Source: Kiritimatiellia bacterium (GTDB lineage: Bacteria; Verrucomicrobiota; Kiritimatiellia; RFP12; UBA1067). Taken from it: 64,000 bases of DNA. Both the position numbers and the translations under genes were made by a program. A model generated the notes under the pieces. It was not told the DNA's origin and made no database searches. It was given only the letters and a program-made list of their open reading frames with translations. Below, piece by piece: positions 5,275 to 59,988 of this stretch; position 1 is the stretch's first letter; each line of letters opens with the position of its first letter. The stretch is from NCBI GenBank assembly GCA_017395505.1, contig JAFPUH010000037.1:59226-123225 (forward strand), read 5' to 3'.

Positions 5275-6837
5275 CTACTCTTCTTGCTTCTCTTCTTCTT
5301 GCTTCTTTTCTTCTGTTTCAGTTCCTTCGCAGCCGCAGTCAAACACGATGTCGGACGCGAGACCTCCGCCGAGCGAGCGGTAGAGGGCTATGAGGTCCAC
5401 CGTTATCTGTCCGCGCGAAACGGCCAGCTCCTCCTCGAGGTTGAGGCGGCTACGCTGCGCATCGAGAACGTTGTTGAAGTCCCTGAGGCCGTTCTTGTAG
5501 AGGTCCTGAGAAATCGTGACGGCATCGGTCGCGGCCTTTACCGCGCTGTTCAGCGCCTGATAGCGATGGTATTCGAGGGTGTAGGCGGAGTAGTTGTCGC
5601 GAACCTCAGCATACGCGCTCTCGAGAGCCAGCTCGTAGTTGAGGCGAGCCTCCTCGACCCTGGCCTCGGCAGCTTTGGTTCTGGCCACGACATTGCCGCC
5701 CTGAAGAAGCGGCCAGGAGATGGACGGGCCGATCGACGCATAGAAGCTGCCGGGCTGCGCGAATTTCGATGCCTGCACCGACTCGAGGCCAAGACCGCCA
5801 GTGATGAAGAGCTTCGGATACCACGCCGACTTGGCCACACCTACGCTCGCTACCTGCGCGGCGAGGGTACGTTCGGCGGCCTTTACGTCGGGACGCGACC
5901 TTATGAGATCCATCGGCAGCTCGGCCACCTTCTGCGGCGACATGAGCCAGTCGCGCCCGGGAACAGGCTTGAGAGTCTCATGCAGCTCGCCCGGAGTCTT
6001 TCCGGCGAGAATCGCAATCGCGTTCTTGAGAGCCTCCTCCTGCGCGAGAAGCTGGGGTATCCTCGCGCGAGTCTGCTCAACGATATAGGCGCACTGGTGC
6101 ACGGCCAGCTCGTCGCCAATGCCGGAGTCGAAGCGCGACTTGAGGATGTCGTATGTCTCGCTCTGCAGCTGAAGGTTGTTGCGGGCGACGGCTATGCGGT
6201 CCTGTATCGTCCTGAGAGTGATGTACTGCTGGCCAAGACGGGTCGTGAGCTCGACCCAAGCCTGTGCGACGCCCCAGCCAGCCGCCTCTGCCTTTGCGAG
6301 AGCCGCCTCGGTTGCGCGACGGTTGCCGCCGAATATGTCGATCTCCCACGACGCGTTGAAGCCGGCGTTGAACACGTCAAGCTGCCTGTGGCGGTATGCA
6401 CCCTGCACGCTGCGGTTGTTGCGGTGTGACTCGGTGCGCGTGGCGCTGCCGTCGATCGAAGCCTTGGGCGAGAACGCCGAAAGCGTGCCGATCATCTCCC
6501 ACTCGGCCTGACGCAGACGGCTGACCGCCGCCTTGAAGCTCAGGTTGTCGGCTATGGCGCACTCGACGAGTTCGGCGAGAACAGGATCGTTCAGCCTCTC
6601 CCACCAGCGGGCCATGAGATCCTCGGAAACTACGACGCGCTCGTCTGCCTCCGCCTCGGCAGTCTTGTACTCGCCGGTGCCGGAGAGCTCTTCGGTCGGA
6701 GAACCCGCGTCAGGCAGGGCGCAGACAGGCGCCTCGACCTCCGGCTCGGTGTAGTCCGGTCCGACGGACGGCAAGTTCATGCACCCCGTTGTGGCCGCAA
6801 GCGAAAAGACCGCAAACCTGTTGAGAACCTTCTTCAT
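5275..6837 (-). CDS. RND efflux outer-membrane factor lipoprotein (NodT/OprM family) with a C-terminal K/E-rich tail
   Basis: 520 aa; signal peptide plus lipobox (LAATTGC); OEP-type repeats; ends ...CEGTETEEKKQEEEKQEE. Confidence 0.9.
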   Translation of the reverse strand: MKKVLNRFAVFSLAATTGCMNLPSVGPDYTEPEVEAPVCALPDAGSPTEELSGTGEYKTAEAEADERVVVSEDLMARWWERLNDPVLAELVECAIADNLSFKAAVSRLRQAEWEMIGTLSAFSPKASIDGSATRTESHRNNRSVQGAYRHRQLDVFNAGFNASWEIDIFGGNRRATEAALAKAEAAGWGVAQAWVELTTRLGQQYITLRTIQDRIAVARNNLQLQSETYDILKSRFDSGIGDELAVHQCAYIVEQTRARIPQLLAQEEALKNAIAILAGKTPGELHETLKPVPGRDWLMSPQKVAELPMDLIRSRPDVKAAERTLAAQVASVGVAKSAWYPKLFITGGLGLESVQASKFAQPGSFYASIGPSISWPLLQGGNVVARTKAAEARVEEARLNYELALESAYAEVRDNYSAYTLEYHRYQALNSAVKAATDAVTISQDLYKNGLRDFNNVLDAQRSRLNLEEELAVSRGQITVDLIALYRSLGGGLASDIVFDCGCEGTETEEKKQEEEKQEE

Positions 6838-12042: not shown

Positions 12043-14094
12043 TCACTTCTTCACGACCGTGAAGACGTTGCGGTTGCCGACCCTCTCGTATGTGACCGAA
12101 TCGGACATCTTCTTGACCATCATTATGCCAAGACCGCCGATTGGCCTTTCAGCCGCGGAAAGCGTCGTGTCCGGATCGGTGTGCGACAGCGGATCGTACT
12201 CGTCGCCATCGTCTATGAACGACATCTTTACGCATTCGGGATTCTCATTCTCCTCAAGGTCCACCTCGAAGCAGGTCGCTCCGGAATGCTTTACGATGTT
12301 CGAGCATATCTCGTCCAGTATTATGTGGAGCGTCGGCAGAAGGCTCTTGCGCTCGACCGTCTCGTCGAGGAAGTCGGACGCGGCTGCGACACCGGCCTGG
12401 GTCGACGGGAACGACTTTGCGCGGCGCGTGCCGTTGAACCTCAAGAGGAGCTGCGTGCAGTCGTCGGCCTGCTCGACACCGAGGCCATGGGCCCTCACGC
12501 ACGCCAGAACGGCGCCGAGGATGCGCGAACGCGAACCTTCGAACAGCGGAGTGCCGCCGGCGAGCATCGACGAGATGTCCTGCTCTAGGCGTTCTTCGCC
12601 GAACAGCACGTTCTTGGCGTCAGGCTGCTCGGTGATTCCGTCCGTGTAAAGGTATATCGCGTCGCCTGGCTTGAGCTGAAGCGTCTCGCTGCGGTACTTG
12701 ACGCCCGGCATGACGCCGAGCACGAGACCGGGTGTCGAGCGCATGAAGCTCGTGCGGCGGCCATCCTTGTCGGGAGCCTCCGATATGAATATCGGCGGGT
12801 TGTGTCCTGCGTTCACGTAGTTGACGGTGCCGGTCACGAGATCTATCTCGCCAACCCATGCCGTGACGAACATGTTTGCGCCGTTGTCGCGGCTCAGGGC
12901 CTCGTTCGCGGTCGTGACGACCTCGTCGATCGGCCTGCCCGTCTGGGCGATGCCCTTTATGGACGCCTTCGCCCTCATCATGAAGAGCGCGGCCGGAACG
13001 CCCTTTCCGCTCACGTCCGCGATCAGGAACGTCACCTTGGCCGGACCCGAGAAGTAGAAGTCGTAGAAGTCGCCTCCGACATCCTTCGCCGTGTTCATGT
13101 CGGCGAAGATGTCTATCCGGTGCTCTCCGGGGAACGGCGGGAAGGTACGCGGAATGGCGCTCTCCTGGATCTCGGAAGCCATCGCCATCTCCTTCTTGCG
13201 CTGCGCGGAGATTTGCCCTTTGACATAGCCTGCAATGACGATTCCCACCAGGAACGAGGCCAGAATGAGGGCCATTCCGTTCAGGAACGCCGATGTTGCG
13301 ACGAGTACACGCCTTTCAACTATCGCAGTGCGCTTGGGAATGACGGCATATACCGGGAAGCCCTCGATTATGCGCTTCTCGCAATAGCTCTCTTCGCCAG
13401 GATCGACCCACTGGCCGCCCTCGCAACCGGCCTCGGGATGCGATATGATCGTGCCGTTGACCGTCGTTATGAATATGCCGCCGTTGTCCCCGCTCACATG
13501 CCAGCCGTGTGTCAGGCCCGTGACTGCGGTTCTGGACAGGTTGCGCACCGACTGCGGCCGGGCGCCGACCTGCACGAAGCCGCCGTCAGGCAGCCACACG
13601 CCGACATACTTTACCATATCGCCGCGAAGCGTGTTGGGCAGAAGAGGCTGGGTCACCTCGAATTTGTCTGTGAGCAGCGCAGCAAACTCCTTCGCCTGGC
13701 CGTCCGCCTTGGTGAAGTCTAGAGCCCCCACCTCCTCGCGGCGCGCGCTGTGTGTAAGCATTCCGTCGGAGTTGACGATGCATATCTCGTCGACGCGAAG
13801 CTCGTCGGCCACATTCCTGAGCCGGCGGCACGACTCGTCGGGATCGTTCCACCACGGCTCTTCGCGCATCTCGTAGTATTTGTCGCGAAGCAGCATCGCC
13901 TGGCGCAGCATCTTGGCGTCCACACGCTCGCGAATGTCGACCGCGACATCATTGAATACGTTGTCGAAGATGCGCTGCATCTCCCGCTTCGTCATCTTCT
14001 CGTGAAGAATCCACGTAAGCACCATCGACGCGACGAACGCTATGGCGACAGCGCCGACGAGCCTAAATACAAGTCTGCGATTGGATGTCTTCAT
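12043..14094 (-). CDS. Membrane sensor PP2C (SpoIIE/RsbU-type) serine phosphatase fused to a C-terminal RsbW/SpoIIAB-type HATPase kinase domain
   Basis: 683 aa: TM1, a periplasmic domain of about 230 aa, TM2, a PP2C domain (DVSGKG, DGITE motifs), then a HATPase_c N-box and G-boxes (DDGDEYD, GGLGIMMVKKMSD). Confidence 0.85.
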   Translation of the reverse strand: MKTSNRRLVFRLVGAVAIAFVASMVLTWILHEKMTKREMQRIFDNVFNDVAVDIRERVDAKMLRQAMLLRDKYYEMREEPWWNDPDESCRRLRNVADELRVDEICIVNSDGMLTHSARREEVGALDFTKADGQAKEFAALLTDKFEVTQPLLPNTLRGDMVKYVGVWLPDGGFVQVGARPQSVRNLSRTAVTGLTHGWHVSGDNGGIFITTVNGTIISHPEAGCEGGQWVDPGEESYCEKRIIEGFPVYAVIPKRTAIVERRVLVATSAFLNGMALILASFLVGIVIAGYVKGQISAQRKKEMAMASEIQESAIPRTFPPFPGEHRIDIFADMNTAKDVGGDFYDFYFSGPAKVTFLIADVSGKGVPAALFMMRAKASIKGIAQTGRPIDEVVTTANEALSRDNGANMFVTAWVGEIDLVTGTVNYVNAGHNPPIFISEAPDKDGRRTSFMRSTPGLVLGVMPGVKYRSETLQLKPGDAIYLYTDGITEQPDAKNVLFGEERLEQDISSMLAGGTPLFEGSRSRILGAVLACVRAHGLGVEQADDCTQLLLRFNGTRRAKSFPSTQAGVAAASDFLDETVERKSLLPTLHIILDEICSNIVKHSGATCFEVDLEENENPECVKMSFIDDGDEYDPLSHTDPDTTLSAAERPIGGLGIMMVKKMSDSVTYERVGNRNVFTVVKK

Positions 14095-15205: not shown

Positions 15206-15380
15206 GGTTTGCGAAGTTGTTTTGGCAAAAATGGAGGTGGTAAGTATAGAAATATAGTATATATTAGATATATATTACTAATTATATTTTACACACAAAA
15301 ACAATTTCGCAACGCGCAGGGGGGTACCCTTATAACATGGCACACCCCATGCGAAGTTGGATTTTTGCGAAGTTGGATTT
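15206..15380. promoter_or_regulatory. Three copies of TGCGAAGTTG(G/T)(A/T)TTT (two in tandem at 15348-15380) plus a 60-bp AT-rich tract, upstream of the partner-switching operon promoter
   Basis: Direct repeats at about 15208-15223, 15348-15362 and 15367-15381. The AT-rich block 15241-15300 contrasts with the 65% GC background. Confidence 0.35.
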
Positions 15381-15386
15381 GCCCTG

Positions 15387-16010
15387 CTATGCGTTTACCC
15401 GCATATCCGCCCAGAGCTGTTCCTGTGCCTCGATGACGAGAAGCATCATTTCGCGGGTCGCGTCATCGATTTCGGCCGCTTCGTACCGTGCATTTGCGAT
15501 GTTGCCGAGCATGATCAGCGCCTCCGTCCACATCTCGTACGAGCAGGAGTCCTTCCTTTTGGCGAGTTTCGCACCTTCGAGAACGTATGCATCGAGCGCC
15601 GTTCGCACATCGCGCTGGAATACGCTCTCGTCGAAAAGCGTGTCGGTGTCGTTGGGGTCGTTCTCGTCGTCGGGGTCCTTGAGCCTGTATTCGAACGTCG
15701 CATCGAAGGCCATGACGAACATCACGACCTCCATGAGCTGGCGCTTGCTGTCGAATTCAAGCGGAAGGCGGCATACGCCGTTCGCGAGACTGTCGGAGTC
15801 CTCATTGATAGCCTTTAGAATGTGGCTCTTCACATTCTCGCGCCTTTCGGCGTCCAGTGAGGGATTCGCCGGCTGCCTGTCGTAGCCGAAGTAGAACATT
15901 TTCAGTATGGGACGCCAGAAGTCGTCCGTCCTGCGCTCCTTTGCGGCCTCCCAGTCAAGGACTTCGCCGTCGGTTCTCTGCGTCTTGCCAATGAAATCGA
16001 GCGTCTTCAT
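15387..16010 (-). CDS. Hypothetical acidic protein (207 aa), downstream partner of the P-loop protein
   Basis: ORF with a 4-nt overlap (16007-16010) to the upstream gene. No recognisable family. Confidence 0.5.
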   Translation of the reverse strand: MKTLDFIGKTQRTDGEVLDWEAAKERRTDDFWRPILKMFYFGYDRQPANPSLDAERRENVKSHILKAINEDSDSLANGVCRLPLEFDSKRQLMEVVMFVMAFDATFEYRLKDPDDENDPNDTDTLFDESVFQRDVRTALDAYVLEGAKLAKRKDSCSYEMWTEALIMLGNIANARYEAAEIDDATREMMLLVIEAQEQLWADMRVNA

Positions 16011-17779
16011 TTCGCGTTCCCCTTCTTTATGACGTATTTGGTGCCCTTTCCGTTCGAGCCGATTCTATGGAGTATCGTCACCTCGTCGCGATCTTCGAGG
16101 GTTTCCTCTATCTTGTCCATCTCGAACTTGGTGACATGCAGCCCCTTTGTGATTTCCGAGCGCATCACTCCCGCGTCGCCTGCCTTGCGGATCATGCGGA
16201 TCGCGGCGAGCACCTTCTCGTCCGTCTCGTTTGTCGCCGCGTAGTCTCGCGCCATCTGCAGCATGCGGCCCTGGATCGCCTTGACGAGCGCCCACGCCCA
16301 GCGGACGCCCTCGACGGAGATAACCGGCCTTTCGATGTCGGCGCTGATCGCGTGCAGGAGCGCGAGCTTGAGGACCAGTTCGACCGAACGTCCCCACACC
16401 GACTCCTCCATCGCGTCGCCCGCCGCCTTTTCGTAGAGCGCGTCCGACTCGTCGGAGACCTTGCGAGCCTCCTCCTCGGCTTCCGGCGACATCTGCACGA
16501 GATACGGCTGTATAGGCCCCCTGTCGCCCGCAGGCGGGGGCATCGCCGCAAGCCGCGACACCTTGTCGGTCACGAAATACGGCACGGGGTTCGCCTCCAG
16601 CCCCGACTTGAAGTTGTCCTTGCTGCGGGGCCCCGCCTCGAATACGAGGCAGCGCCCGAGAAGTCCGCCCGTAAGCGCGCGCTGGCTGAGGGCGCTGTAG
16701 AAGTTGCTCGGCGTCGCTGTCGCGAACATCGAGAAAGAGGGCTTTACGATGTCCTCTCGGCCCTGCGGCTTGTTGGGGCCGGCGGCCTTGGCGCGCGTCG
16801 TGTGGATCGAGCCGGACGACGTGAAGATGCTCAGCATCAAGCGCCAGAGGGATTCCGTCGCCGAGCTGCTGTTGCGGTCGCTCTTGAGCTCGCGAAGCAC
16901 CGAGTCGTACTCGTCGAACTGGCAAAGGAGCGTCGGCGAGTTGAGGAGCGCATCCTCGAGGCCCTGTCCAGAGGCGACGTTCTGTATGACGGACGACGAC
17001 ATGCGGACGTTCGCGGCGAGGTTCTTTATCACCTTTCGGGGGTGGTCCTTGCCGGTCGCGGAGCCGGCGAGCGCGATTATGTAGAGGTTTGGGTATGCGT
17101 CGCGGGGGCCGACGAACTTGCGTCCCGCCAGGTGGGCGAGGAACACGAGCGAGCCCGCGAAGGAAAGCACGCGATTCGGACGGTGGGCCGAGAGCATCAT
17201 GTATTCGGTGAGCTCGTTCACGAAGCCGGGCACATTGAGGAGCGACTCGTCGATCGCGCCCTGGTTCTGGGGCGAGGACGCCTTCTCGGGGGCCGGCGCG
17301 GCCTCGTCGCCGCAGGGCGGCAGGGTGATGGTCGAGATCATGTCTCGAGCGGCCGTGTAGCGGCTCGTCACCTCCTCGTTGAGCGCGGAAAGCGCAAACT
17401 GGCGGGCCTCGAAGGACGGGAAGCTCCGCATGTTGATGTCTTCGGTGCCGCGCCTGAGGTCGCGCTCGCACACGACGGACACGAACTCGCGGAAGTCGGT
17501 GCGAATCGTGGCGGTACTCGCCGCGAGGCCATTGAAGAAGTCCAGAAACCCGTCGTCGGCCAGCTCCGGCATGCTCTTTACGGCCGCAACGCCGCGTACT
17601 ATGGCGTCTTGGCTCGTTTCGTTCATAAGCGCACGGAAAGCGGCGCTTCGGCTGTCGCTCGAGAAATAGCTGTTCTCAATTCCGATCCGCTCGACAAGGA
17701 GTTTCGCCTGCCGCGCGAACTGCACAAGATGAGACAGCACCGCATACTCAAGCCGCTCTTCTTTGGTGATGTCTTTCAT
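16007..17779 (-). CDS. P-loop NTPase-like protein resembling the DUF3987 / VirE (phage-plasmid primase C-terminal-like) family, with a C-terminal winged-helix-like region
   Basis: 590 aa from the internal ATG at 17779. The longer track ORF to 17959 would read through the REP-like repeat. Deviant Walker A LYIIALAGSATGKD and Walker-B-like LLCQFDEYD. TGGTATAAT sits 8 nt upstream of the ATG, suggesting a leaderless transcript. Confidence 0.55.
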   Translation of the reverse strand: MKDITKEERLEYAVLSHLVQFARQAKLLVERIGIENSYFSSDSRSAAFRALMNETSQDAIVRGVAAVKSMPELADDGFLDFFNGLAASTATIRTDFREFVSVVCERDLRRGTEDINMRSFPSFEARQFALSALNEEVTSRYTAARDMISTITLPPCGDEAAPAPEKASSPQNQGAIDESLLNVPGFVNELTEYMMLSAHRPNRVLSFAGSLVFLAHLAGRKFVGPRDAYPNLYIIALAGSATGKDHPRKVIKNLAANVRMSSSVIQNVASGQGLEDALLNSPTLLCQFDEYDSVLRELKSDRNSSSATESLWRLMLSIFTSSGSIHTTRAKAAGPNKPQGREDIVKPSFSMFATATPSNFYSALSQRALTGGLLGRCLVFEAGPRSKDNFKSGLEANPVPYFVTDKVSRLAAMPPPAGDRGPIQPYLVQMSPEAEEEARKVSDESDALYEKAAGDAMEESVWGRSVELVLKLALLHAISADIERPVISVEGVRWAWALVKAIQGRMLQMARDYAATNETDEKVLAAIRMIRKAGDAGVMRSEITKGLHVTKFEMDKIEETLEDRDEVTILHRIGSNGKGTKYVIKKGNAK

Positions 17780-17820
17780 GGCTACTATTATACCAAAAAT
17801 GGCGAGACGGTGCGTCGCAC

Positions 17821-18030
17821 AGGTCCCGGCGGGCAAGGCGTCAAAGTCCCAGGACCCCAGACTATTTTGCCCTGCCACTTTTCGTATTGGAGTCCCAGGA
17901 CCCCAGACGTCAAACCCCCAGGACTTTGACCCCTTGGGTCCTAGGACTTCACACCTCAAAGTCCTAGGACTTCATACCCCAAAGTCCTAGGACTTTGCTC
18001 GCCTCTCCGCGTGACCCCTTCAAGCCGCCT
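17821..18030. repeat. REP-like intergenic element, copy A (about 210 bp) with three GTCCTAGGAC palindromes; homologous to 58599..58760
   Basis: Alignable to copy B from AGGTCC(C/A)GGCGGGCAAGGCGTCAAAGTCCC through GACTTTGCTC.CCT.CCGCGTG. Several nested inverted repeats. Confidence 0.8.
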
Positions 18031-18043
18031 CGAAGAACCACTT

Positions 18044-18071
18044 TCCGCACCATATTTGCAAATATGGTGCG
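18044..18071. repeat. Perfect 28-bp palindrome CCGCACCATATTTGCAAATATGGTGCGG
   Basis: Seen directly in sequence. It sits 26 nt past the stop of the 18097..20262 gene and is not followed by a T-tract. Confidence 0.8.
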
Positions 18072-18096
18072 GAATTCTAACGCCCGTAATATTACG

Positions 18097-20262
18097 CTAT
18101 GGCATTTCGACCGTCACCTTGAAGAACCGATGAAGCGAATTGGTCGGATACGCCCATTCCTCAGTAGACGATAGCGTCTCCTTGCCATATATCTTGTAAA
18201 GCCGTTCAATGCTATTCGTGTTCAAGTTCGGCTCCCATGTCACAACTGGCACGCCATCTTGCATGTCTATCTTCGCCGTAAACACGCTCGTTTCATTCGT
18301 CGGGTTTGTTCCGGCCACAAACTCTTCCCAAAGTCTCGTCGCCTTCCCGCCCTGCGTCTTGCCGCTCAAGGCAATCGCCGTTGTCTCGAAGTCAGTATCC
18401 TTGCCATCAAAACCGTATTTCGTCAACCACGAATACGGCACGGGTTCTGGTGTGGTCATTGTGAAGCCACTACCGTCGGCAGGCGCCCACTGCACCTGAT
18501 CAACCCAAATGCAGTCTGGCGCATACGAAGTCGCGCCATCCTTGCGGTATTCCCATTTGAGCGTATGCTTGCCGCCTCCCACAATTTCATGCGAGACATA
18601 ATGCCATTCGCCATCATGGCCGGCAATCCTCGCCACAACCACATCATCTACCAAGAAAGCACCATAATCATAGTAACCGTCGTCCCCTTCTTCCTCATCG
18701 GCTTCTTCGCACGCCGCTCTCCACCAGAACGACACCTTACCGTCCTTCTTAATCGAAGATTGCAGCCATGTAGTCTCGTTATTGCCAATCGTACCACTCT
18801 GCACGGACGACACGCCGTCATGCGAAACGTCCGTCACAACGGTCCAGGGATGCGAGTCATCCGTCTCCATCGTGTAACCGTAGAAATTCGCCGCCTCGCT
18901 CAAAGACTCACTTCGCGTGAAGGTCGCCGTAGCCTCTTCCGAATCCTTCCAATCATCCTTGACGGCAATCGCCCGCACGCTGCAAGATTGATAGATGCCG
19001 AAAGGATGCTTGTACTCGCGCCCATTCACCGCTGGGTCGCCCCCGTCAACCGTGTAGAGTATCGTCGCTCCTTCAGTCTCGCACGAAATCGAAACTGCCT
19101 GTGAAACATTGTCAAAGGTTATCCCGCTTGGTTCGATAACTGGTCGCTCAACAGTATACCACTCGCGCGTAAACGTCGCCGTCGCAGTTTCGCTATCAAA
19201 CCAATCCTCCTTAAATGCTTTGGCCTTAACCGTTGTTGTGTCGTCAATTGCAAACGGTCCTGTGTAGAGCGCACTCTTCTCCGTCGGTTCACTCCCATCA
19301 AGCGTATAATGAATCTCGACACTATCGGTTTCACAAGAAAGCGTCACTATGTTGCCGGCCCAATTGAACACATTCTCTTCTGCGGATATGTTCGGCTCGA
19401 CTGCTTGACCAAACGCATACTCATTCGAGTAAACGACTTGATATGGATATTCGGCAACATACGCCAATGCCTTGACTTGTACCCGATGGGTTATCGAAAA
19501 CGGGCCTTCATACAGGAAACATTTTGCGGTTTGATTTGTAGTCGGCTCGCTCCCGTCAATCGTATAATAAATTTTTGCGGTATCATTTGCTGATGTCAAA
19601 ACAACTTTTCTGTCTTCAGCAAGCACGCCGTCAGCTGGAGCAAAGTTCACTTTTGCGGCTCCATAATCCACCGCGCCCATGAGCCATGTTTCACCTTCTA
19701 CCCAGTCTTCGCATCCCTCAACCGCCATACATCCATTACCTTGAGAGTAATTGAAGCGTCCCGTGCAGCTACATTCGCGGCCGCCGGCACTCCAACTAGA
19801 TGAAATAGTGGTTGCTGGTTTTAAGCCTTCAAACATGATATTTACTGTATTTTTGATGGGATAAACCCACCAGCCTCGCCATGTATCATAATAATTATGA
19901 TCCCTGAGACTTGCCCTCGAAAAAAATGAGCTTCCATTTGTTGCGATTCTTAAAACGGTTGAAGGGACTATTACGGCCGTCACATCCGAATCATCAGGTA
20001 TTTTGATAGCACCTACCCCAATACCAACTACTGGCATACCATCAATCATAGATGGCAATCTTAATACCTTTGGCAGCGCTCCACTATGGGCGGGCAATGG
20101 ACTATTGGACTCATTAGGAACCATTGTTCGTGTGGAGGGATTCTCCAAAACAACGCCATCTTTATCTTCATAATAATACCAAGTGATTCCTTCTATGGTT
20201 TGTGTCAGAGCAAAGACACTGCTGGTGATCCCCGCAAATATCAAGACTAACATGCTTTTCAT
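18097..20262 (-). CDS. Secreted or cell-surface protein with a BspA-like leucine-rich region and four chitobiase/beta-hexosaminidase C-terminal-type (Fn3-like) repeats
   Basis: 721 aa with signal peptide. Repeated IYYT(I/L)DGSEPT / ILYTVDGGDP modules. Markedly lower GC than the flanks. Confidence 0.75.
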   Translation of the reverse strand: MKSMLVLIFAGITSSVFALTQTIEGITWYYYEDKDGVVLENPSTRTMVPNESNSPLPAHSGALPKVLRLPSMIDGMPVVGIGVGAIKIPDDSDVTAVIVPSTVLRIATNGSSFFSRASLRDHNYYDTWRGWWVYPIKNTVNIMFEGLKPATTISSSWSAGGRECSCTGRFNYSQGNGCMAVEGCEDWVEGETWLMGAVDYGAAKVNFAPADGVLAEDRKVVLTSANDTAKIYYTIDGSEPTTNQTAKCFLYEGPFSITHRVQVKALAYVAEYPYQVVYSNEYAFGQAVEPNISAEENVFNWAGNIVTLSCETDSVEIHYTLDGSEPTEKSALYTGPFAIDDTTTVKAKAFKEDWFDSETATATFTREWYTVERPVIEPSGITFDNVSQAVSISCETEGATILYTVDGGDPAVNGREYKHPFGIYQSCSVRAIAVKDDWKDSEEATATFTRSESLSEAANFYGYTMETDDSHPWTVVTDVSHDGVSSVQSGTIGNNETTWLQSSIKKDGKVSFWWRAACEEADEEEGDDGYYDYGAFLVDDVVVARIAGHDGEWHYVSHEIVGGGKHTLKWEYRKDGATSYAPDCIWVDQVQWAPADGSGFTMTTPEPVPYSWLTKYGFDGKDTDFETTAIALSGKTQGGKATRLWEEFVAGTNPTNETSVFTAKIDMQDGVPVVTWEPNLNTNSIERLYKIYGKETLSSTEEWAYPTNSLHRFFKVTVEMP

Positions 20263-20627
20263 ACTCTTTCTCCTTTCGTAGAATCTGTGATAATGATATG
20301 CGTGCCATAAGGTGCACCTCGTTTTTGAAGTTCCATCTTAATGTTCAATTTATGCCATTCACAATACCTCTTAAGTTCCTCGAATTCTTCTAGTCCGTCG
20401 AAGGCTCCGCTTCCGTGATGCCGAGAGATGAAGCAAACATCACCAGTCGTTGTATAACCAACAGTGGCATGATCAAGAAACTTCAAATTCTTACAAGAAC
20501 CAAATATGCTTTTTTGTAAGCAACCCCTTGGGCACCGGCCGCCACGCAAAACCAGAGCTGGGCAACCAGAATGATAAGTCTTAATCTCCTTGCCGTCTGG
20601 TAAGGAATAAATGTATGGTTTTGACAT
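20259..20627 (-). CDS. Small Cys/His-rich hypothetical protein (122 aa), translationally coupled upstream of the surface protein
   Basis: 4-nt overlap with 18097..20262. Motifs SGCPALVLRGGRCPRGC and HATVGY..ISRHHGSG. Possibly a papain-like or C39-like fold, unproven. Confidence 0.45.
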   Translation of the reverse strand: MSKPYIYSLPDGKEIKTYHSGCPALVLRGGRCPRGCLQKSIFGSCKNLKFLDHATVGYTTTGDVCFISRHHGSGAFDGLEEFEELKRYCEWHKLNIKMELQKRGAPYGTHIIITDSTKGERV

Positions 20628-20852
20628 CTATCAGTATCTCCTTTCGCCTGCCGCTACCTAGTTTGTGAGATGAGCACCGGTGGCAAAAGATAAGCGGCGC
20701 ACTCTCAAGATTCACATCTTCTGGAGGCACCGGAAAGAGCCCGAAGTAAAACATGATTAGAAAGTACGCCGCGTGGATACCACGCAGCGCAACTTCGTAT
20801 TTCGCCTTACTCCTTGAAAATTTCCGGTTTTCCAGAAAGCTACTATACGCTG

Positions 20853-21036
20853 TTGCGTACGTTGCACGGGTTAGGTTGCCCACCCCGCGCTTTTCTCCAC
20901 TCCACTTCACCCGAAGTGTGGGAGCTACGGCCGGCTTTTCTGCCCGACCGGTATGTCAAAGAACCTTGCCCTTCTCGCGAAGGAACGGCGAATATGATAC
21001 CATATCGCCGCGCTCATTTCAAGCGCGGCGAGAGGG
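20853..21036 (-). repeat. About 185-bp repeat R190, copy 1: GC-rich structured segment ending in a hairpin (TCGCCGCGC-TCATTTCAA-GCGCGGCGA) immediately followed by TGGTATCAT
   Basis: More than 95% identical to 21616..21797. The 3' 50 nt also occur at 23121..23170 and, diverged, at 58836..58878. Confidence 0.85.
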
Positions 21037-21063
21037 AAATTAGTTTTCGAAATTCTGTGCCTA

Positions 21064-21312
21064 CTACACCCGAACACCATATTCATATATGGCATCACTC
21101 GGCAAATCTATTCTATCGCTCCAAACAACGCATGTCCGACTTGAATCAAGCCGCGCATTCTCAAACAACCCAGGCAATGTGCGCAAGTCTTCAAACGCCT
21201 TTATTGTGCTGATATCATCGGCGACGTCATATACCACATCCCGCCCCTCGTCAAAATGGACGAAGAGTTTGTAATCTGGCAAGGTCTTAATACTTGATAT
21301 CCTGCGTATCAT
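21064..21312 (-). CDS. DUF2442 family protein
   Basis: 82 aa with the characteristic ...VVWSDRIDL....LY C-terminal pattern. Forms the usual pair with DUF4160. Confidence 0.65.
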   Translation of the reverse strand: MIRRISSIKTLPDYKLFVHFDEGRDVVYDVADDISTIKAFEDLRTLPGLFENARLDSSRTCVVWSDRIDLPSDAIYEYGVRV

Positions 21313-21324
21313 AGCTTAGCCCTA

Positions 21325-21576
21325 TCAAAGCGGTGGCAGCTTCACTATCCGCTGTGTCTTCCACATTTCTTCCAGTTCGCCTCTGTGCAACGACAACCAT
21401 TCCTTGACAAGTCGCTGCGCAGTCAATGGCAAATCTCCATCCGTCATTTCGGACGAAGCCAAATCAAACACTCCGACGCACTCGCCATAAATGGCATGTA
21501 TGTGCGACGGATCATGTTCTTTAGGCTTAAAGAACATCTTAACGACTATACCATAAAATCTTGCAATCTCTGGCAT
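21325..21576 (-). CDS. DUF4160 family protein
   Basis: Starts at internal ATG 21576 (MPEIARFYGIVVKMF...HIHA.YGE...) with SD GGAGGG 8 nt upstream. The track ORF to 21630 is an upstream extension. Confidence 0.65.
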   Translation of the reverse strand: MPEIARFYGIVVKMFFKPKEHDPSHIHAIYGECVGVFDLASSEMTDGDLPLTAQRLVKEWLSLHRGELEEMWKTQRIVKLPPL

Positions 21577-21615
21577 TTTAAATGCCCTCCTTTCTTTCCG
21601 ATGGTCTATTCTAAA

Positions 21616-21797
21616 TTGCGTACGCTGCACGGGTTAGGTTGCCCACCCCGCGCTTTTCTCCACTCCACTTCACCCGAAGTGTGGGAGCTACGGCCGGCTT
21701 TTCTGCCCGACCGGTATGTCAAAGAACCTTGCCCTTCTCGCGAAGAACAGCGAATATAATACCATATCGCCGCGCTCATTTCAAGCGCGGCGAGAGG
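21616..21797 (-). repeat. About 185-bp repeat R190, copy 2 (hairpin plus TGGTATTAT at its upstream end); precedes the DUF4160/DUF2442 cassette
   Basis: Near-identical to 20853..21036; ends 40 nt before the DUF4160 ATG. Confidence 0.85.
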
Positions 21798-21850
21798 TCA
21801 AAATCTCATTCCTTCAGTGGGCTCGGAGTAATGCGCAAATCCGGCTGCAA

Positions 21851-22051
21851 TCACTTTGAACGAATACAGTTGTAAAGATATTCGCCACTTTCACGGTAAA
21901 GTCCCGACTCAGGGTCTATCAGCTTAGTGAAGAATGCAGAATGATAAACCTCGTCCATGGCATCTTCAGGCGACTTACCCTCATGTGCGACAATCGCCGC
22001 AATCAAGTCCTGTATCGCAAACTCGATAAGCTGCTTCTGCTCATTTGACAT
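21851..22051 (-). CDS. DUF3791-like small protein
   Basis: Internal start MSNEQKQLIEFAI...SPEDAMDEVYHSAFFTKL resembles the DUF3791 N-terminal region. Overlaps the DUF3990 3' end. Confidence 0.5.
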   Translation of the reverse strand: MSNEQKQLIEFAIQDLIAAIVAHEGKSPEDAMDEVYHSAFFTKLIDPESGLYRESGEYLYNCIRSK

Positions 22052-22538
22052 TGAGCACCTCCTTGAAGCGAAGCAACTTGACGGCACGTTCGGTATGGAA
22101 TGAATACTGCGTATAAAGCTCCTTGAACTTCATGCGCTGCGCAAACTCATCAACCGTAATCAAATCCTTTTCATACAAACGAAACAGCAACGAGAGTTTG
22201 TCGTTCGCAATAGGACCGACAACAACATCATACCGATTGTCACGATTGTGGTCTTCCGCTGGCTGATCAATCTTTCTGTTTGCCTTTACAAAAAGCGCCC
22301 ATTCACGACACGGCTCAGCAAACTTTTTCACATTCAAGGAATCAAAAACGCCATCATCCGCTTCAAACACCATGACCTTAGGCACGCCTCCTAGCCGGAC
22401 GACTCTTTGGCGAGCAGTCTTCTCTGCGCACTCAAGCGAACTTGTCGCATAAAAGCCCCGTCCAAAATCTTTAGCCGGCAGACCTTTGGCAAGGTCGATT
22501 TCGCAAAATCCCAGATTTGACCCATGGTAAAGCTTCAT
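22041..22538 (-). CDS. DUF3990 family protein
   Basis: MKLYHGSN...DFGRGFYATSS matches the hallmark N-terminus of DUF3990. Confidence 0.7.
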   Translation of the reverse strand: MKLYHGSNLGFCEIDLAKGLPAKDFGRGFYATSSLECAEKTARQRVVRLGGVPKVMVFEADDGVFDSLNVKKFAEPCREWALFVKANRKIDQPAEDHNRDNRYDVVVGPIANDKLSLLFRLYEKDLITVDEFAQRMKFKELYTQYSFHTERAVKLLRFKEVLNVK

Positions 22539-22795
22539 GCGGCGACACCTCCGTTCCTGCGAGCGACTTGGGCCATATCAGCGACCGCTTCTTCAATCGA
22601 ATATGTGTGTTCAATATCGTAGTGGTCGGAAAGAAACGAAAGCGCACCATGTTTCTTCAAATAGTCGAACGCTTCCAGATATGACATACCATATGTGTCC
22701 GCAAAATCATTCACGCACACCACAAAGTAGTCAATCTTGTTTTTCGTCAATTCTGGCATGACAATCCATTTCTTTTGAGCTAATGATTCTGCCAA
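22535..22795 (-). CDS. DUF3791 family protein
   Basis: ...DYLKKHGALSFLSDHYDIEHTYSIEEAVADM pattern typical of DUF3791. ATGA overlap with DUF3990. Confidence 0.6.
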   Translation of the reverse strand: MAESLAQKKWIVMPELTKNKIDYFVVCVNDFADTYGMSYLEAFDYLKKHGALSFLSDHYDIEHTYSIEEAVADMAQVARRNGGVAA

Positions 22796-22804
22796 GGTCC
22801 CTGT

Positions 22805-23104
22805 TCATACGGCAACAGCCTCCTTGCACACACGATGCGCAAAACCAAGCGAATGCGGCAATATATGCGACGATACCAGATCAACCTTGCAGTTGAACAG
22901 TTTCTCATACTCCGACGACATAGCACATTCGTTGCGCCAACTGTATTCGCCTGGCATCCACTTCACCAAGAAATCCACATCGCTGTCGGGACGCTCCTCC
23001 TTGCGGGCGCACGAGCCGAAGACCCAAAGCTTTTCGGCCTTGTGCTTCCTGGCGATGGCGTATATCTCGTCACGCCTCGCCCGTATCTCGTCAAGCATGC
23101 ACAT
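22805..23104 (-). CDS. Minimal nucleotidyltransferase (MNT / Pol-beta superfamily), no cognate HEPN partner seen
   Basis: Start MCMLDEI... (ATG at 23104 or 23098). GS-x9-DxD motif in LWVFGSCARKEERPDSDVDFLV. Confidence 0.7.
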   Translation of the reverse strand: MCMLDEIRARRDEIYAIARKHKAEKLWVFGSCARKEERPDSDVDFLVKWMPGEYSWRNECAMSSEYEKLFNCKVDLVSSHILPHSLGFAHRVCKEAVAV

Positions 23105-23120
23105 ATTTGCAACATCCCGA

Positions 23121-23170
23121 AGGAACACCGATATGATACCATATCGCCACGCGCGAATCAAGCGCTGAAC
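23121..23170 (-). repeat. R190 3'-tail fragment (hairpin plus TGGTATCAT) at the right boundary of the low-GC island
   Basis: CGAAGGAACACCGATATGATACCATATCGCCACGCGCGAATCAAGCGCTG aligns to the last 50 nt of R190. GC composition returns to the flank level immediately to the right. Confidence 0.7.
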
Positions 23171-23172
23171 GA

Positions 23173-24318
23173 TCAGGAGAAAGTCTTTGCGTAATCGGAG
23201 TAGATAGCGGCCGCGTCAAGGTCCGACCGTGCCATTCTGAAGGCGTTTGCGCCGCATTTCGCAGTGTCGAGCGAACTGAGCGTTCTCACGAGACTTGCGG
23301 CATCGGATGCGCGGTATAGGGCGCCGGCCTCATGGCGGGCGAGCAGCTTGGCGCTTTCGCCGCCGAGGGAGCTGACGACCGCAAGCGATGCTTTGGCATA
23401 GTCGCAGAGCTTGTAAGGTACGCCGACGCAGCTTGAATCGTCCATCGGTATCATGCCGACGTTGCAGCCGGCGAACATGCGCGAAAGCTCCTCTTCGCCA
23501 AGATAGCCCCTGAAGCGAACGCGCGACGAAACGCCAAGCCCTTCCGCAAGCTGGCGCAGCGCCCCTTCTCCTTCTCCCTTTCCGGCGATGTCTAGCGTTG
23601 CGTCAGGCAGTTCTGCGAGAGCGCTCACGACTGTTGCGAGGTCGTATGTCCGGCCGAGATTTCCGGCGTATGCGAGGCGCAGCGCGCCATCATCCTTACG
23701 GACGACAGCAGAAGCGCCGGACATGTCGATGCCGTGGTAGAACCTGCGAACTTCGCCCTTGAAACCGTAGCCGCGAACGAGATCGATGTAGCGGTCTGCT
23801 ACGACGGTTATCGCGTCCGCACCGAGGTAGTTCGCTCGGGCGAGGCGGCGAAGCGGCCATAGCGCCGCCTTGGGAGCGACGCGCTCGAACGTCTCTGGCC
23901 ACGCATCCATGACATCAATGACGAGCTTGGCGCCGAATTTCGCTGCGAGACGGCGAGCGACGAGTCCTGTCGAGAGCGGAGGAGTCGAGACGACGATCAG
24001 ATCAGGGGCGCCATTCTTTTTCGCCGCGGCTTGGGCGAGGCGCGACCATTCGCGCGAATAACGCCAGTGGCTGATCATGCGGCCAAGCGAGACGTTGGCG
24101 GAATAAGGCGGCTCGTGCACCAGGCGAAGCGCGAAACTAGGCGGCTCTCCTGCTATGGCGCGGCGTGTCTTTGTCGTATGGTTGAAGTCGGCCGTCCAGA
24201 GGGTCACTTCATGCCCCGCGCGCGCAAAAGCCTCCGCCATGAGCCAATACCGCTGGGGACGAAAACCCTCCAGCGGAAGGTTGTCGAAGGGATTCTCTAT
24301 CCAGACGCGCAAATTCAC
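23173..24318 (-). CDS. Glycosyltransferase family 4 (RfaG-like)
   Basis: GTG start overlapping the der stop (GTGA). N-terminus ...GFRPQRYWLMAEAFARAGHEVTLWT and C-terminal E-x7-E region typical of GT4. The track extension to 24816 overlaps der and is rejected. Confidence 0.75.
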   Translation of the reverse strand: MNLRVWIENPFDNLPLEGFRPQRYWLMAEAFARAGHEVTLWTADFNHTTKTRRAIAGEPPSFALRLVHEPPYSANVSLGRMISHWRYSREWSRLAQAAAKKNGAPDLIVVSTPPLSTGLVARRLAAKFGAKLVIDVMDAWPETFERVAPKAALWPLRRLARANYLGADAITVVADRYIDLVRGYGFKGEVRRFYHGIDMSGASAVVRKDDGALRLAYAGNLGRTYDLATVVSALAELPDATLDIAGKGEGEGALRQLAEGLGVSSRVRFRGYLGEEELSRMFAGCNVGMIPMDDSSCVGVPYKLCDYAKASLAVVSSLGGESAKLLARHEAGALYRASDAASLVRTLSSLDTAKCGANAFRMARSDLDAAAIYSDYAKTFS

Positions 24319-58154: not shown

Positions 58155-58307
58155 TTATATCTTCAGGCAGATGACGAGCAGCTCGACGGCAATGACGACG
58201 AGCGAGGCGGCGATGACTATTCCGACGGCCGTAATCATCCGCCCCCACTCACGGAAAGCCGTCGCGGACTCCCTCGCCGATTCCTTGATGTTGTCGAACC
58301 ATTTCAT
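58155..58307 (-). CDS. Unannotated 50-aa single-TM peptide (MKWFDNIKESARESATAFREWGRMITAVGIVIAASLVVIAVELLVICLKI), leaderless
   Basis: Not in the ORF track (under 60 aa). TGATATACT sits 7 nt before the ATG. Polar N-terminal half, then one hydrophobic helix. The opposite-strand 60-aa ORF (58171..58353 +) has no such signals. Confidence 0.35.
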   Translation of the reverse strand: MKWFDNIKESARESATAFREWGRMITAVGIVIAASLVVIAVELLVICLKI

Positions 58308-58433
58308 GCAGTCAGTATATCATATCCAGCCCCTTCCCGCAACCAGACATTAAAGCCGCCGTCTTTATCGCCCAACTCTTAAGGCCTAGGCGGAATTCGG
58401 GTTGGTATTGTATTTAGATTCTCTTTTCTATTC

Positions 58434-58500
58434 TCTTTTGTGTCCCGCTGTGGGAGGGTATCCCTCCCGCTGTGGGAGGGTGGGGGTCCCACTCTGGGAT
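58434..58500. repeat. Tandem hairpin repeats (CCC)TCCCGCTGTGGGAGGG(T) x2 plus a degenerate third unit
   Basis: GTGTCCCGCTGTGGGAGGGTATCCCTCCCGCTGTGGGAGGGTGGGGGTCCCACTCTGGGATG. Each unit is itself an inverted repeat (CCCTCCC-GCTGT-GGGAGGG). Confidence 0.7.
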
Positions 58501-58598
58501 GATGTCCCCTACAGTTAGGGAGATGTAGCGTGTACTTGATTGGCATAATGATGCGATGGCGAATCTTCTACAAAAAACGCCCTTCGACGCTGCTGTGC

Positions 58599-58760
58599 AG
58601 GTCCAGGCGGGCAAGGCGTCAAAGTCCCGGGACCCCAGACCTTTTTCCCCCGCCACTTTTCGTATTGGGGTCCCAGGGCCCTACACGTCAAACCCCCAGG
58701 ACTTTGACCATTGGGGTCCTAGGACTTTGCTCCCCTCCCCGCGTGGCCCTTTCTAGCCGC
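58599..58760. repeat. REP-like intergenic element, copy B (about 160 bp; one GTCCTAGGAC palindrome); homologous to 17821..18030
   Basis: Same orientation and about 85% identity with copy A over the alignable parts. The spurious 58414..58656 ORF lies inside it. Confidence 0.8.
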
Positions 58761-58835
58761 GACCGTCTAAGCGCAACCAACACCCAGGGGCAGCAAGCTT
58801 CAACCCAAAGAAATGCTCAAGTCACAGGAACAGAG

Positions 58836-58878
58836 ATATAACACCAAATCGCCGTGCTCATTTCAAGTGGGGCGAAAG
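58836..58878. repeat. Diverged R190 3'-tail (hairpin TCGCCGTGC-TCATTTCAA-GTGGGGCGA plus TGGTGTTAT) next to REP-B
   Basis: ATATAACACCAAATCGCCGTGCTCATTTCAAGTGGGGCGAAAG aligns to the R190 tail ATGATACCATATCGCCGCGCTCATTTCAAGCGCGGCGAGAG. Confidence 0.55.
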
Positions 58879-58950
58879 TGCAGGCCATCTTCGCGCTTGC
58901 TTACTCTGCGGCGAATATAGTATAATATGCATTAATTTAATGGTGGCAAT

Positions 58951-59988
58951 ATGCTAGTAGCAAAGAGCGTACGCAAACTGACTGCTTACACGCCCGGCGA
59001 ACAGCCGAAGGCGAAGGATGTGGTCAAGCTGAACACGAACGAGAACCCCTATCCGCCTTCCCCGGAATGCGCAAAGGTGCTCTCCGGCTTCGACCTCGAC
59101 AAGCTGCGCCGCTACCCCGACCCGGAATTCTGCGAGCTTCGCAAGGCTATCGGCAGAATGGTGAAGGCCAACCCCGAGAACATCTTCATCGGCAACGGGT
59201 CCGACGAGATACTGGCTCTTTCGGCCAAGGCATTCGTCGAGGATGACGAGACGATCGGCTCGCTTGATCCGTCGTATTCCCTCTACAAGACGCTTGCGGC
59301 GATACGCGACGTAGAATGGCGCGGTTTCGGCGACCTCTGCGACGTCAAGGGCGAAGGCGCGAAGAAGCTGGCGCTTTTCCTTTTGACGAACCCGAACGCG
59401 CCGACGGGTGTGCTGAAACCGCGCGCCGAAGTCGCCGCGTTCGCCAAGCGCTTCAAGGGTGTCGTAATGGTCGATGAGGCATACGCCGACTTCTCGCGCG
59501 AAAACTGCATGGCCCTCGCGACCGCGAAGGACAACGAGAACGTCATCGTGATGCGCACCTTCTCGAAGAGCTTCTCGCTCGCGGGGCTGCGCGTCGGATA
59601 CTGCGTGGGGCCGAAGCCGCTTGTCGACGCGCTCTACAAGGTGAAGGATTCCTACAACGTCGATGCCGTCGCACAGGCCGTCGCGCTCGCCGCCGTAAAG
59701 GACGCCAAGTGGATGCGCGCGAACGTGAAGAAGGTCGTCGCGACCAAGAGGCGCTTCGTGGCGGAGCTCGAGAGGCGCGGCTGGGACGTGATGCCGAGCG
59801 AGTCCAACTTCGTCTTCGCAAGGCCGGCGCACGCGAAGGCTTCCGAGATTTTTGAACGGTTAAGGGGCAGACATATCTACGTCAGGTACTTTAGCGGCCC
59901 GAAGACGGCCGATCGTCTTCGGGTTACGATAGGGACCGACGGGCAGATGGCGACGTTGCTCGCAGCGCTCGACGAGTTCGACAGGTAA
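58951..59988 (+). CDS. hisC: Histidinol-phosphate aminotransferase
   Basis: Class II aminotransferase; LNTNENPYPPSP; PLP-lysine region FSKSFSLAGLRVGY. Plus-strand TAGTATAAT at about 58906-58914. Confidence 0.95.
   Translation: MLVAKSVRKLTAYTPGEQPKAKDVVKLNTNENPYPPSPECAKVLSGFDLDKLRRYPDPEFCELRKAIGRMVKANPENIFIGNGSDEILALSAKAFVEDDETIGSLDPSYSLYKTLAAIRDVEWRGFGDLCDVKGEGAKKLALFLLTNPNAPTGVLKPRAEVAAFAKRFKGVVMVDEAYADFSRENCMALATAKDNENVIVMRTFSKSFSLAGLRVGYCVGPKPLVDALYKVKDSYNVDAVAQAVALAAVKDAKWMRANVKKVVATKRRFVAELERRGWDVMPSESNFVFARPAHAKASEIFERLRGRHIYVRYFSGPKTADRLRVTIGTDGQMATLLAALDEFDR

Follow-up and report, generated by a model that had tools for sequence, protein, structure and literature searches.

The closest described counterparts of the locus reported here are the iteron-type systems of mobile elements that encode helicases or primases, such as phage P4 with its ori and crr, the ori of Staphylococcus aureus pathogenicity islands (SaPI) and the iteron plasmids, together with the multiple palindromic repressor sites that lie upstream of autoregulated mobile-element promoters. 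The locus itself lies in a 64,000-nt stretch of a Kiritimatiellia bacterium genome (contig JAFPUH010000037.1, positions 59,226 to 123,225; hereafter the window), in the 643-bp intergenic region 58308–58950 between two divergent transcription units. Within this spacer, the segment 58443–58878 carries a 22-bp hairpin minisatellite, a copy of an array of palindromic sites named REP-B, and the tail of a promoter block named R190; the latter two also occur at an island at 17.8–23.2 kb of the window. The segment is non-coding, and its three repeats are real and all above chance. An earlier note on this DNA had taken the absence of cargo between the repeats as support for an insertion site. We favor a different reading, to which we assign a probability of roughly 0.55: the segment would be a non-coding relic of a DUF3987-type mobile module, in which the array is a protein-binding site, and not a demonstrated vacant site for cassettes.

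The relic segment would thus occupy the divergent promoter region that extends from a 50-aa open reading frame (ORF) and hndABCD to hisC, at a synteny breakpoint. At 17.8 kb, the intact REP-B abuts the leaderless promoter of a DUF3987 helicase gene and may form a multimeric protein-binding array, acting either as an operator for that promoter or as an iteron-like site for replication in cis. At 58.6 kb, the array would have been kept while the gene was lost and the promoter mutated, leaving an orphan, and the R190-like block would be a promoter copy with a spoiled -10 box and nothing to transcribe. Both arrays change by whole units between strains, presumably through slippage or unequal exchange. 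The features are listed in Table 1.

Table 1. Features of the hnd–hisC spacer and of related loci in the window.
Feature	Position	Strand	Description and basis
Orphan REP-B copy	58598..58760		GC-rich arms flanking four palindromic sites; homology, phasing, dyad symmetry
Full REP-B paralogue	17778..18028	-	Six phased sites and the leaderless promoter TGGTATAAT (17795-17787) of the DUF3987 gene
Decayed DUF3987-gene promoter copy with start codon	58556..58597	-	Colinear with 17778-17819; BLAST match, alignments
Degraded R190 promoter block	58806..58878	-	-35 TTGAAA 58866-58861, 17-nt spacer, -10 position TGTTAT 58843-58838
R190 copy 1	20853..21035	-	183 bp, 99% identical to 21616-21797
22-bp hairpin minisatellite (TCCCGCTGTGGGAGGGT...)	58443..58508		Repeat detection, DNA fold, strain comparison
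DUF3987 helicase and 207-aa gene module with 3' non-coding region	15207..17799	-	2.6 kb; family matches, other contexts
Extended -10-like TGGCATAAT	58541..58549	+	6 nt before ATG 58556 of the 66-aa ORF 58556-58756; status uncertain
hisC promoter	58897..58926	+	TTGCTT, 18-nt spacer, TATAAT; read from sequence
Extended -10 (TGATATACT) of the leaderless 50-aa membrane ORF	58314..58322	-	Left flank of the repeat segment

The phased REP-B array

The REP-B copy in the hnd–hisC spacer is identified by its homology to the copy at 17.8 kb, which confirms the element where the earlier note had placed it. Identity is 90% over the 130 nt of 58598–58727 and 17820–17949 and 89% between 58716–58760 and 17984–18028, or ~88–90% overall for 58598–58760 against 17820–18028, and a sensitive BLAST search lengthens the match to 58556–58727 against 17778–17949 (E = 3e-41). 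The array is GC-rich (0.58–0.63) and is built of palindromic sites of 18–20 bp, with the ideal form CAAAGTCCTAGGACTTTG and the core GTCCYAGGAC. Four such sites are present at 58.6 kb, with cores at 58624–58633, 58670–58679, 58693–58702 and 58716–58725. There are six at 17.8 kb, where the array is longer by two 23-bp units and Tandem Repeats Finder (TRF) reports a 23-bp period at 17938–17995 (score 102). The site motif is enriched, with 9 matches against 1.4 expected.

Spacing and conservation are the most regular properties of these arrays. Six independent copies were compared, comprising both window loci, the orthologous alleles of other strains, a copy in contig L040, and the copies in two metagenome contigs of the Joint Genome Institute (JGI), L017 and L026. 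In all six, the starts of the cores are 23 bp, or multiples of 23 bp, apart, a spacing of about two helical turns, and the two JGI copies are still strictly phased in this way at only 63–70% identity. Conservation across the copies is higher in the site cores than in the spacers (0.92 versus 0.84; p = 0.0014). As DNA, REP-B also exhibits dyad symmetry (z = -3.3); the arms at 58588–58637 and 58712–58761 are 72% complementary over 50 nt, with much of the symmetry coming from the internal palindromic sites.

Searches of plasmid and phage collections returned no DNA match to REP-B. Other databases were scanned with one exact two-site pattern, which diverged copies would escape. With this pattern, 241 million JGI contigs yielded 18 hits, of which only L017 and L026 are true homologues, and the GTDB representative genomes yielded no true homologue, the lone hit being a single match in Rubrivivax. 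Two sets of hits were examined and discarded: the single hit in IMG/VR is unrelated to REP-B by BLAST, and those in L014 and L016 are chance matches to long arrays of an unrelated 23-bp satellite (CCAGGACTTCCTACATCCACCAC; L016 4900–7164). L023 and L029, each with multiple hits to the pattern, look to be of this kind too. The repeat family is undescribed, with no match in Rfam or in the plasmid and phage collections, and its kind is a familiar one, that of phased protein-binding repeats edging a mobile replication module.

Two further repeats accompany REP-B-type arrays. Heptamer microsatellites, (GGTTAGT/ACTAACC)n, occur at 6130–6190 and 6400–6480 of L017 and at 2370–2445 of L026, within ~300 bp or less of the REP-B-like arrays there, and the window copies are without them. 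At 18040–18075 in the window, a perfect palindrome with a 14-bp stem, TTCCGCACCATATTTGCAAATATGGTGCGGAA, separates REP-B from the end of a 721-aa surface-protein gene; its probable role is to terminate transcription and thereby shield the helicase promoter.

A decayed promoter beside the orphan array

The homology between the two loci runs on for 42 nt beyond the array, through the promoter of the DUF3987 gene, and stops at the start codon. In the copy at 58.6 kb, the -10 box TATAAT of the 17.8-kb promoter has become TAGAAG (58569–58564), and TTTTTGGTATAAT reads TTTTTTGTAGAAG, while the complement of the start codon, CAT, is kept at 58556–58558. By a hand count on the alignments of the two copies, 19 of 26 promoter-proximal positions are identical. 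To the left of 58556, BLAST found no resemblance either to the helicase coding sequence or to the 3' end of the module. With a relic of promoter and start codon present and nothing like the helicase gene to the left of 58556, the 58.6-kb copy is, judging from its sequence, an orphan array with a dead promoter and no gene. This is the footprint expected of a gene lost at the REP-B/DUF3987 junction, or of a junction-spanning fragment that was copied in.

The same boundaries bear on a second possible origin, in which REP-B would be a miniature inverted-repeat transposable element (MITE) that was mobilized in trans and landed both by the DUF3987 promoter and in the hnd–hisC spacer. REP-B resembles bacterial MITEs such as Correia/NEMIS, ERIC and RUP, which are ~170–210 bp long, non-coding, intergenic and dyad-symmetric, occur in several contexts and break short-read assemblies. 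It is 165–210 bp long, non-coding and intergenic, it has the end-to-end symmetry and complementary arms described above, it is found in at least five contexts in different organisms at 63–88% identity, and assemblies often break inside it. Moreover, one closely related copy of the module lacks it. However, the flanks at 17819/18029 and 58597/58761 show no target-site duplication, and the likeness between the window copies continues past the element into the neighboring promoter. The dyad symmetry is largely that of the palindromic internal sites, and strictly phased 23-bp tandem units that vary in number are atypical of MITEs. Copy number in the searched collections is very low: the 64-kb window has two copies, and the exact pattern finds two true homologues in JGI. 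A MITE origin is therefore unlikely, and the orphaned array of a DUF3987 module remains the reading that we prefer.

The DUF3987 helicase module

Some 40 bp separate the end of the 17.8-kb array from the leaderless promoter downstream of it, which belongs to the DUF3987 helicase gene (17779–16007, minus strand); this gene starts with an ATG at 17779 and encodes a 590-aa protein. This protein matches the C-terminal part (336–758 of 788) of phrog_3022, a 'DNA primase' (E = 1.5e-61). Its tblastn matches to phage primase/polymerase genes are all distant, more distant DUF3987 homologues are fused to PrimPol domains, and a sequence search of the PDB returned no match. Experiments have shown one PriCT-DUF3987 protein to be a 5'-3' helicase that acts in a mobile-element replisome together with a PrimPol (PMC11724360).

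Besides the helicase gene, the module contains a gene for a 207-aa protein and, at its 3' end, ~180 nt of non-coding DNA. It is found in four different genomic neighborhoods, several of them near toxin-antitoxin or restriction-modification genes: at 15207–17799 of the window, 7981–10583 of L037, 4273–6797 of L040 and 8499–9677 of L039. The L037 copy retains 87% nucleotide identity in a wholly different neighborhood, beside toxin-antitoxin and restriction-modification genes, and more diverged forms are present in L039 and L040–L042. In L040, the REP-B upstream of the module is 85% identical at the nucleotide level, although the DUF3987 proteins are just 61% identical. The module flanks that were fetched showed neither an integrase nor a transposase. 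Many homologues of the module reside on contigs of only 2–4 kb, as if both edges break assemblies.

The partner protein is 207–211 aa long across the copies and has only five homologues; it matches no family in Pfam, PHROGs or NCBIfam, and its AlphaFold model has a predicted local distance difference test (pLDDT) score of 49.5, too low to support a fold search. Directly 3' of the module, the stretch 15230–15400 contains 9-bp TAGATATAT repeats and two 16-bp TGCGAAGTTGGATTTT repeats. This AT-rich stretch is 79% conserved with L037/L038, and it makes a better candidate for an origin of replication than REP-B.

The R190 promoter block

The earlier note had recognized a diverged R190 tail in the spacer, and the alignment bears this out: 58806–58878 matches 21720–21796 at 76.6% (E = 6e-9), with weaker matches to 20981–21034 and 23121–23162. 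In the otherwise heterogeneous low-GC island, R190 is represented by a pair of copies that are 99% identical. On the minus strand, both have TTGAAA, a 17-nt spacer and TGgTATCAT, followed by a 130-nt leader (RNA fold z = -1.9). A perfect 8-bp palindrome (CGCCGCGC...GCGCGGCG) surrounds the -35 box, and each copy heads a small gene set that includes DUF4160/DUF2442. A promoter-only relative, the 23.1-kb tail at 23122–23174, serves as promoter for a nucleotidyltransferase gene. The copy at 58.8 kb keeps the -35 box and the spacing, lacks the conserved A2 of the -10 box, and has no downstream gene. The best reading of this copy is a degraded sigma-70 promoter, and not a recombination site.

Coding and RNA potential

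Two ORFs pass through the repeats, and neither is likely to be a gene. The first, an 80-aa minus-strand ORF with a GTG start (58414–58656), had been dismissed as a spurious product of the repeats in the earlier note, rightly so: it spans the repeats, is uncalled in related contigs, and carries indels of 1, 2, 22 and 23 nt between strains. The second, a 66-aa plus-strand ORF (58556–58756), runs through REP-B from a start that resembles a typical leaderless gene start, and its frame is broken by a 1-nt deletion in L003, L057 and related contigs. A coding reading of either was rejected on the basis of non-triplet indels in other strains and because neither was ever called as a gene. As the 66-aa ORF is frameshifted in other strains, any transcript there would be non-coding. 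The 14-mer TGGCATAATGATG, at the TGGCATAAT/ATG start, recurs at 12131–12118.

A functional RNA from this region, such as a small RNA or leader transcribed from the minus-strand R190-type promoter and ending at a hairpin at 58591–58567, or a plus-strand transcript from TGGCATAAT at 58541, would make use of the promoter-like sequences that flank REP-B on both strands, of the one terminator-like hairpin on the minus strand, and of the extensive secondary structure that the region could form. The quantitative tests point the other way. The RNA fold is no better than that of shuffled sequences (z = -1.1 and -1.4), the covariation term of the alignment fold is unfavorable (+2.53), with compensatory change in 5 of 52 predicted pairs, and Rfam scans in both gathering and E-value modes returned nothing relevant. 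Terminators are at chance level (1 found versus 1.3 expected), the minus-strand -10 box is without its key A2, and strains differ here by blocks of 23, 46 and 69 nt plus 12% substitutions. Such an RNA is extremely improbable.

Strain variation and the insertion-site question

Variation at the locus was followed in 33 same-species contig rows, gathered in two overlapping look-ups in which 18 and 23 contigs were read (L001–L010, L050–L059 and 13 flagged as similar); several rows are one contig seen from both flanks. The repeat region is kept in all examined strains of the species, as intergenic alleles of 643, 660, 663 and 687 bp that contain two to five 22-bp units and three to six 23-bp sites; the left half of REP-B also falls into two sequence classes among them. 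In a comparison of the window strain with L003, 58443–58760 is 86–90% identical and the flanks are 98–100% identical; the repeat block, being more diverged than its flanks, has a different history, either faster or recombinational. There is no clear signal of concerted evolution of REP-B within the genome, where the window copies are 88.6% identical, compared with 86.4% for orthologous alleles. Many contigs end inside REP-B or the minisatellite, which is usual for repetitive sequence.

The 22-bp units account for part of this variation. The earlier note had counted two or three tandem self-complementary units, and there are indeed three (58443–58464, 58465–58486 and 58487–58508; identity 100/77/77%), two good and one degenerate, for which TRF gives a period of 22, 2.6 copies and a score of 67. 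The central unit is a perfect hairpin, CCCTCCC-GCTGT-GGGAGGG, with a 7-bp stem and a 5-nt loop. The 19-mer CCCTCCCGCTGTGGGAGGG has one exact occurrence and one copy with three mismatches (0.04 expected), and the region folded as DNA is more stable than all 200 shuffles (z = -4.5). With three mismatches or fewer, matches to the unit in the window are confined to 58440–58480, and none was found beyond the orthologous locus in the related contigs scanned. The units form a local minisatellite, a variable number tandem repeat with two to five units among strains. They resemble the palindromes of repetitive extragenic palindromic (REP) sequences and bacterial interspersed mosaic elements (BIMEs) in being short, GC-rich, imperfect, tandem and intergenic, with a polymorphic number of units. 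However, REP/BIME palindromes are dispersed, whereas the 22-bp units are restricted to this locus, both in the window and in all related contigs that were fetched.

Arrays that vary by whole units between strains, lie between divergent promoters and are retained in all examined strains might serve as a tunable regulatory region, in which a change in unit number would switch the 50-aa ORF and the hnd operon, or hisC, by contingency or phase variation. Each flanking gene, however, has a close, conserved promoter of its own outside the repeats, the arrays are 100–400 bp away from these promoters, and related species run hisC on only ~38–100 bp of upstream DNA. We consider a switch of this kind very unlikely.

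The surroundings of hisC have been rearranged repeatedly. In related species (hisC 88–92% identical; L043–L049), the genes downstream of hisC are syntenic, and the upstream neighbor differs in three of the species, where it is a response regulator, a pterin-binding protein or LuxS. What these species have in common upstream of hisC is confined to ~38 nt of promoter and leader (58911–58948). With differing neighbors upstream and so little sequence in common, the repeats lie in species-specific DNA exactly at the synteny breakpoint, and the 5' edge of hisC is a recurrent rearrangement point in the group.

These data also bear on the idea that REP-B and the R190 tail bound the insertion of cassettes, with the 58.7-kb locus unoccupied and the island at 17.8–23.2 kb occupied. 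The geometry behind this idea holds up. Within the window, REP-B and R190 tails co-occur only at the island and here, and the island pair, a 17.8-kb REP-B and a 23.1-kb promoter-type tail, mirrors that of the spacer in order and orientation; low-GC cargo of 5.1 kb separates the two there, and 45 bp here. The earlier note had named, as the outcome that would refute it, a likeness limited to the REP unit; in the alignment with 17.8–23.2 kb the likeness extends further, to the 42-nt promoter and the 73-nt R190 block. The synteny breakpoint fits a landing site too, and it also favors the weaker notion of an unstable junction. Elsewhere, DUF3987 modules border variable sets of toxin-antitoxin or restriction-modification genes. 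In addition, an IS481-family insertion sequence interrupts REP-B in three contig rows from two samples (L007 and L059 are the same contig, L053 the second). It is inserted at the window equivalent of ~58684, encodes a 400-aa transposase, is flanked by what reads as a 6-bp ACACGT duplication, and spans ~690–2200 of L007 and 2276–3478 of L053.

Several lines of evidence nevertheless speak against a landing site. The contig rows, which go part of the way to the population data that the earlier note had called for, revealed changes in unit number and the IS481 element; alleles with inserted cassettes were absent from all 33 contig rows, none of which has a gene between REP-B and the R190 tail, and all contigs spanning the 17.8–23 kb island have identical cargo. 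Pairs of the attC core RYYYAAC...GTTRRRY were not found on either strand of 58300–58950 or 17700–23300, and a Pfam scan of 16 ORFs at 6.8–24.3 kb and three beside the locus recovered no integrase or recombinase family. A dead helicase promoter with its start codon is unexpected in a naive target, and the R190 tail is explained as a promoter. The argument from lack of cargo is weakened in particular by this mutated DUF3987 promoter and start codon. Integrons and clusters of attC sites lacking integron-integrases (CALIN) are the obvious point of comparison. Like these, the island at 18–23 kb consists of short cassettes in the same orientation with toxin-antitoxin-type genes (DUF4160/DUF2442, DUF3990/DUF3791 and a nucleotidyltransferase) and a repeated 183-bp element between them. 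Unlike these, its repeated element is a promoter with a leader and not an attC site, no core pairs are present, no integrase family was detected in the island ORFs scanned, and there is no cassette turnover between strains. A vacant landing site is distinctly unlikely, and we return to the relic of a DUF3987 module.

Weighing the relic reading

Several points count against the relic reading as well. The loss of a gene would be read solely from a 42-nt promoter relic, and the strong divergence of alleles could reflect exchange between copies or strains instead of simple decay. The closest DUF3987 homologue (90% aa identity; L037/L038) and one at 52% (L039) have no REP-B upstream, and the REP-B-like arrays of L017 and L026 have no adjacent DUF3987 gene. 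No REP-B-binding protein has been identified, the 207-aa partner having no family match and an unusable model, and the AT-rich stretch with repeats that an origin would call for, 15230–15310 (GC 0.22), lies at the opposite end of the module from REP-B.

Some of these points define the role of the array more closely. Since it is missing at L037/L038 and L039, REP-B is not a fixed component of the module; as a 5' appendage, it is conserved yet dispensable. Because REP-B is GC-rich, the AT-rich stretch is at the far end of the module, and some modules lack REP-B, an operator-type protein-binding array appears slightly favored over a true origin. It is also conceivable, if distinctly improbable, that REP-B is the cis-acting recognition array of an undescribed, minimal ~2.6 kb DUF3987 module of Kiritimatiellae, one that relocates in the genome with no recognizable integrase or transposase. 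Its orphans would be functional, as landing pads for module and cargo or as crr-like replication enhancers, and the hnd–hisC spacer would then be a real docking site that is currently unoccupied. Taken together, the 58.6-kb locus is most likely an inert but hypervariable relic.

This reading has practical consequences. Annotation of the region can be tidied by removing the spurious ORF and by describing the R190 tail as a promoter motif and not a recombination site, and the repeats explain why assemblies of the source species break at the hnd–hisC locus. More generally, the locus points to a small DUF3987 helicase module in ruminant- and gut-type Kiritimatiellae metagenomes, with a phased palindromic array at its 5' edge. 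Should REP-B prove to be a recognition site, it would offer a handle on the replication or movement of islands that lack an integrase.

Genes and promoters around the spacer

To the left of the spacer, on the minus strand, the 50-aa membrane ORF (58307–58155) is followed by a four-gene operon for a NuoE-like 2Fe-2S protein, a small protein, a NuoF-like protein and an [FeFe]-hydrogenase, a gene content that fits the label hndABCD given in the earlier note. The 50-aa gene separates the repeats from the hnd promoter. Gene calls include it in each related contig, and the two strains compared show 100% conservation; the C-terminal half of its product is hydrophobic, and it has no family match. To the right, the class I/II aminotransferase gene (58951–59988) is consistent with hisC; its NCBI homologues at ~70% identity carry the label Kiritimatiellae, which places the source organism among the uncultured members of that class. 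The hisC promoter marks the right limit of the species-specific segment, as the sequence is kept in related species from ~58911 on. The same or nearly the same proteins are present in many assemblies of the European Nucleotide Archive and Logan metagenomes and in one metagenome-assembled contig at NCBI.

A scan for TGGTATAAT with at most one mismatch provided a promoter consensus for the source organism. The extended -10 sequence, tTGGTATAAT, precedes many start codons by 6–8 nt and also lies upstream of tRNA-Val; examples across the window include 17795–17779, 44353–44336, 53433–53419, 37521–37505 and 58322–58305. With the -10 box so close to the start codon, many genes would be leaderless, and a large share of the mRNAs in this organism appear to be of this kind.

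Comparison with known systems

REP-B shares properties with each of the two kinds of system introduced at the outset. The operators of autoregulated mobile-element promoters provide one parallel, in that REP-B consists of palindromic 18–20-bp sites in helical phase, ~40 bp upstream of a strong promoter, with conservation concentrated in the site cores. It departs from them in number, four to six sites over 100–140 bp being unusually many, and in that no repressor gene is identified in the module. Iteron arrays differ from REP-B in being asymmetric direct repeats and not palindromes, and REP-B is GC-rich, has no adjoining AT-rich unwinding region, and is missing from some copies of the module; its likeness to iterons is one of sequence. 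Several features enter into it: tandem sites are ~22–23 bp apart, about two helical turns, the number of repeats varies, and the array lies beside a replication helicase gene in two lineages (17.8 kb and L040–L042). It may extend to the orphan itself, for P4 crr is, much as the 58.6-kb REP-B would be, a second gene-less copy elsewhere on the replicon.

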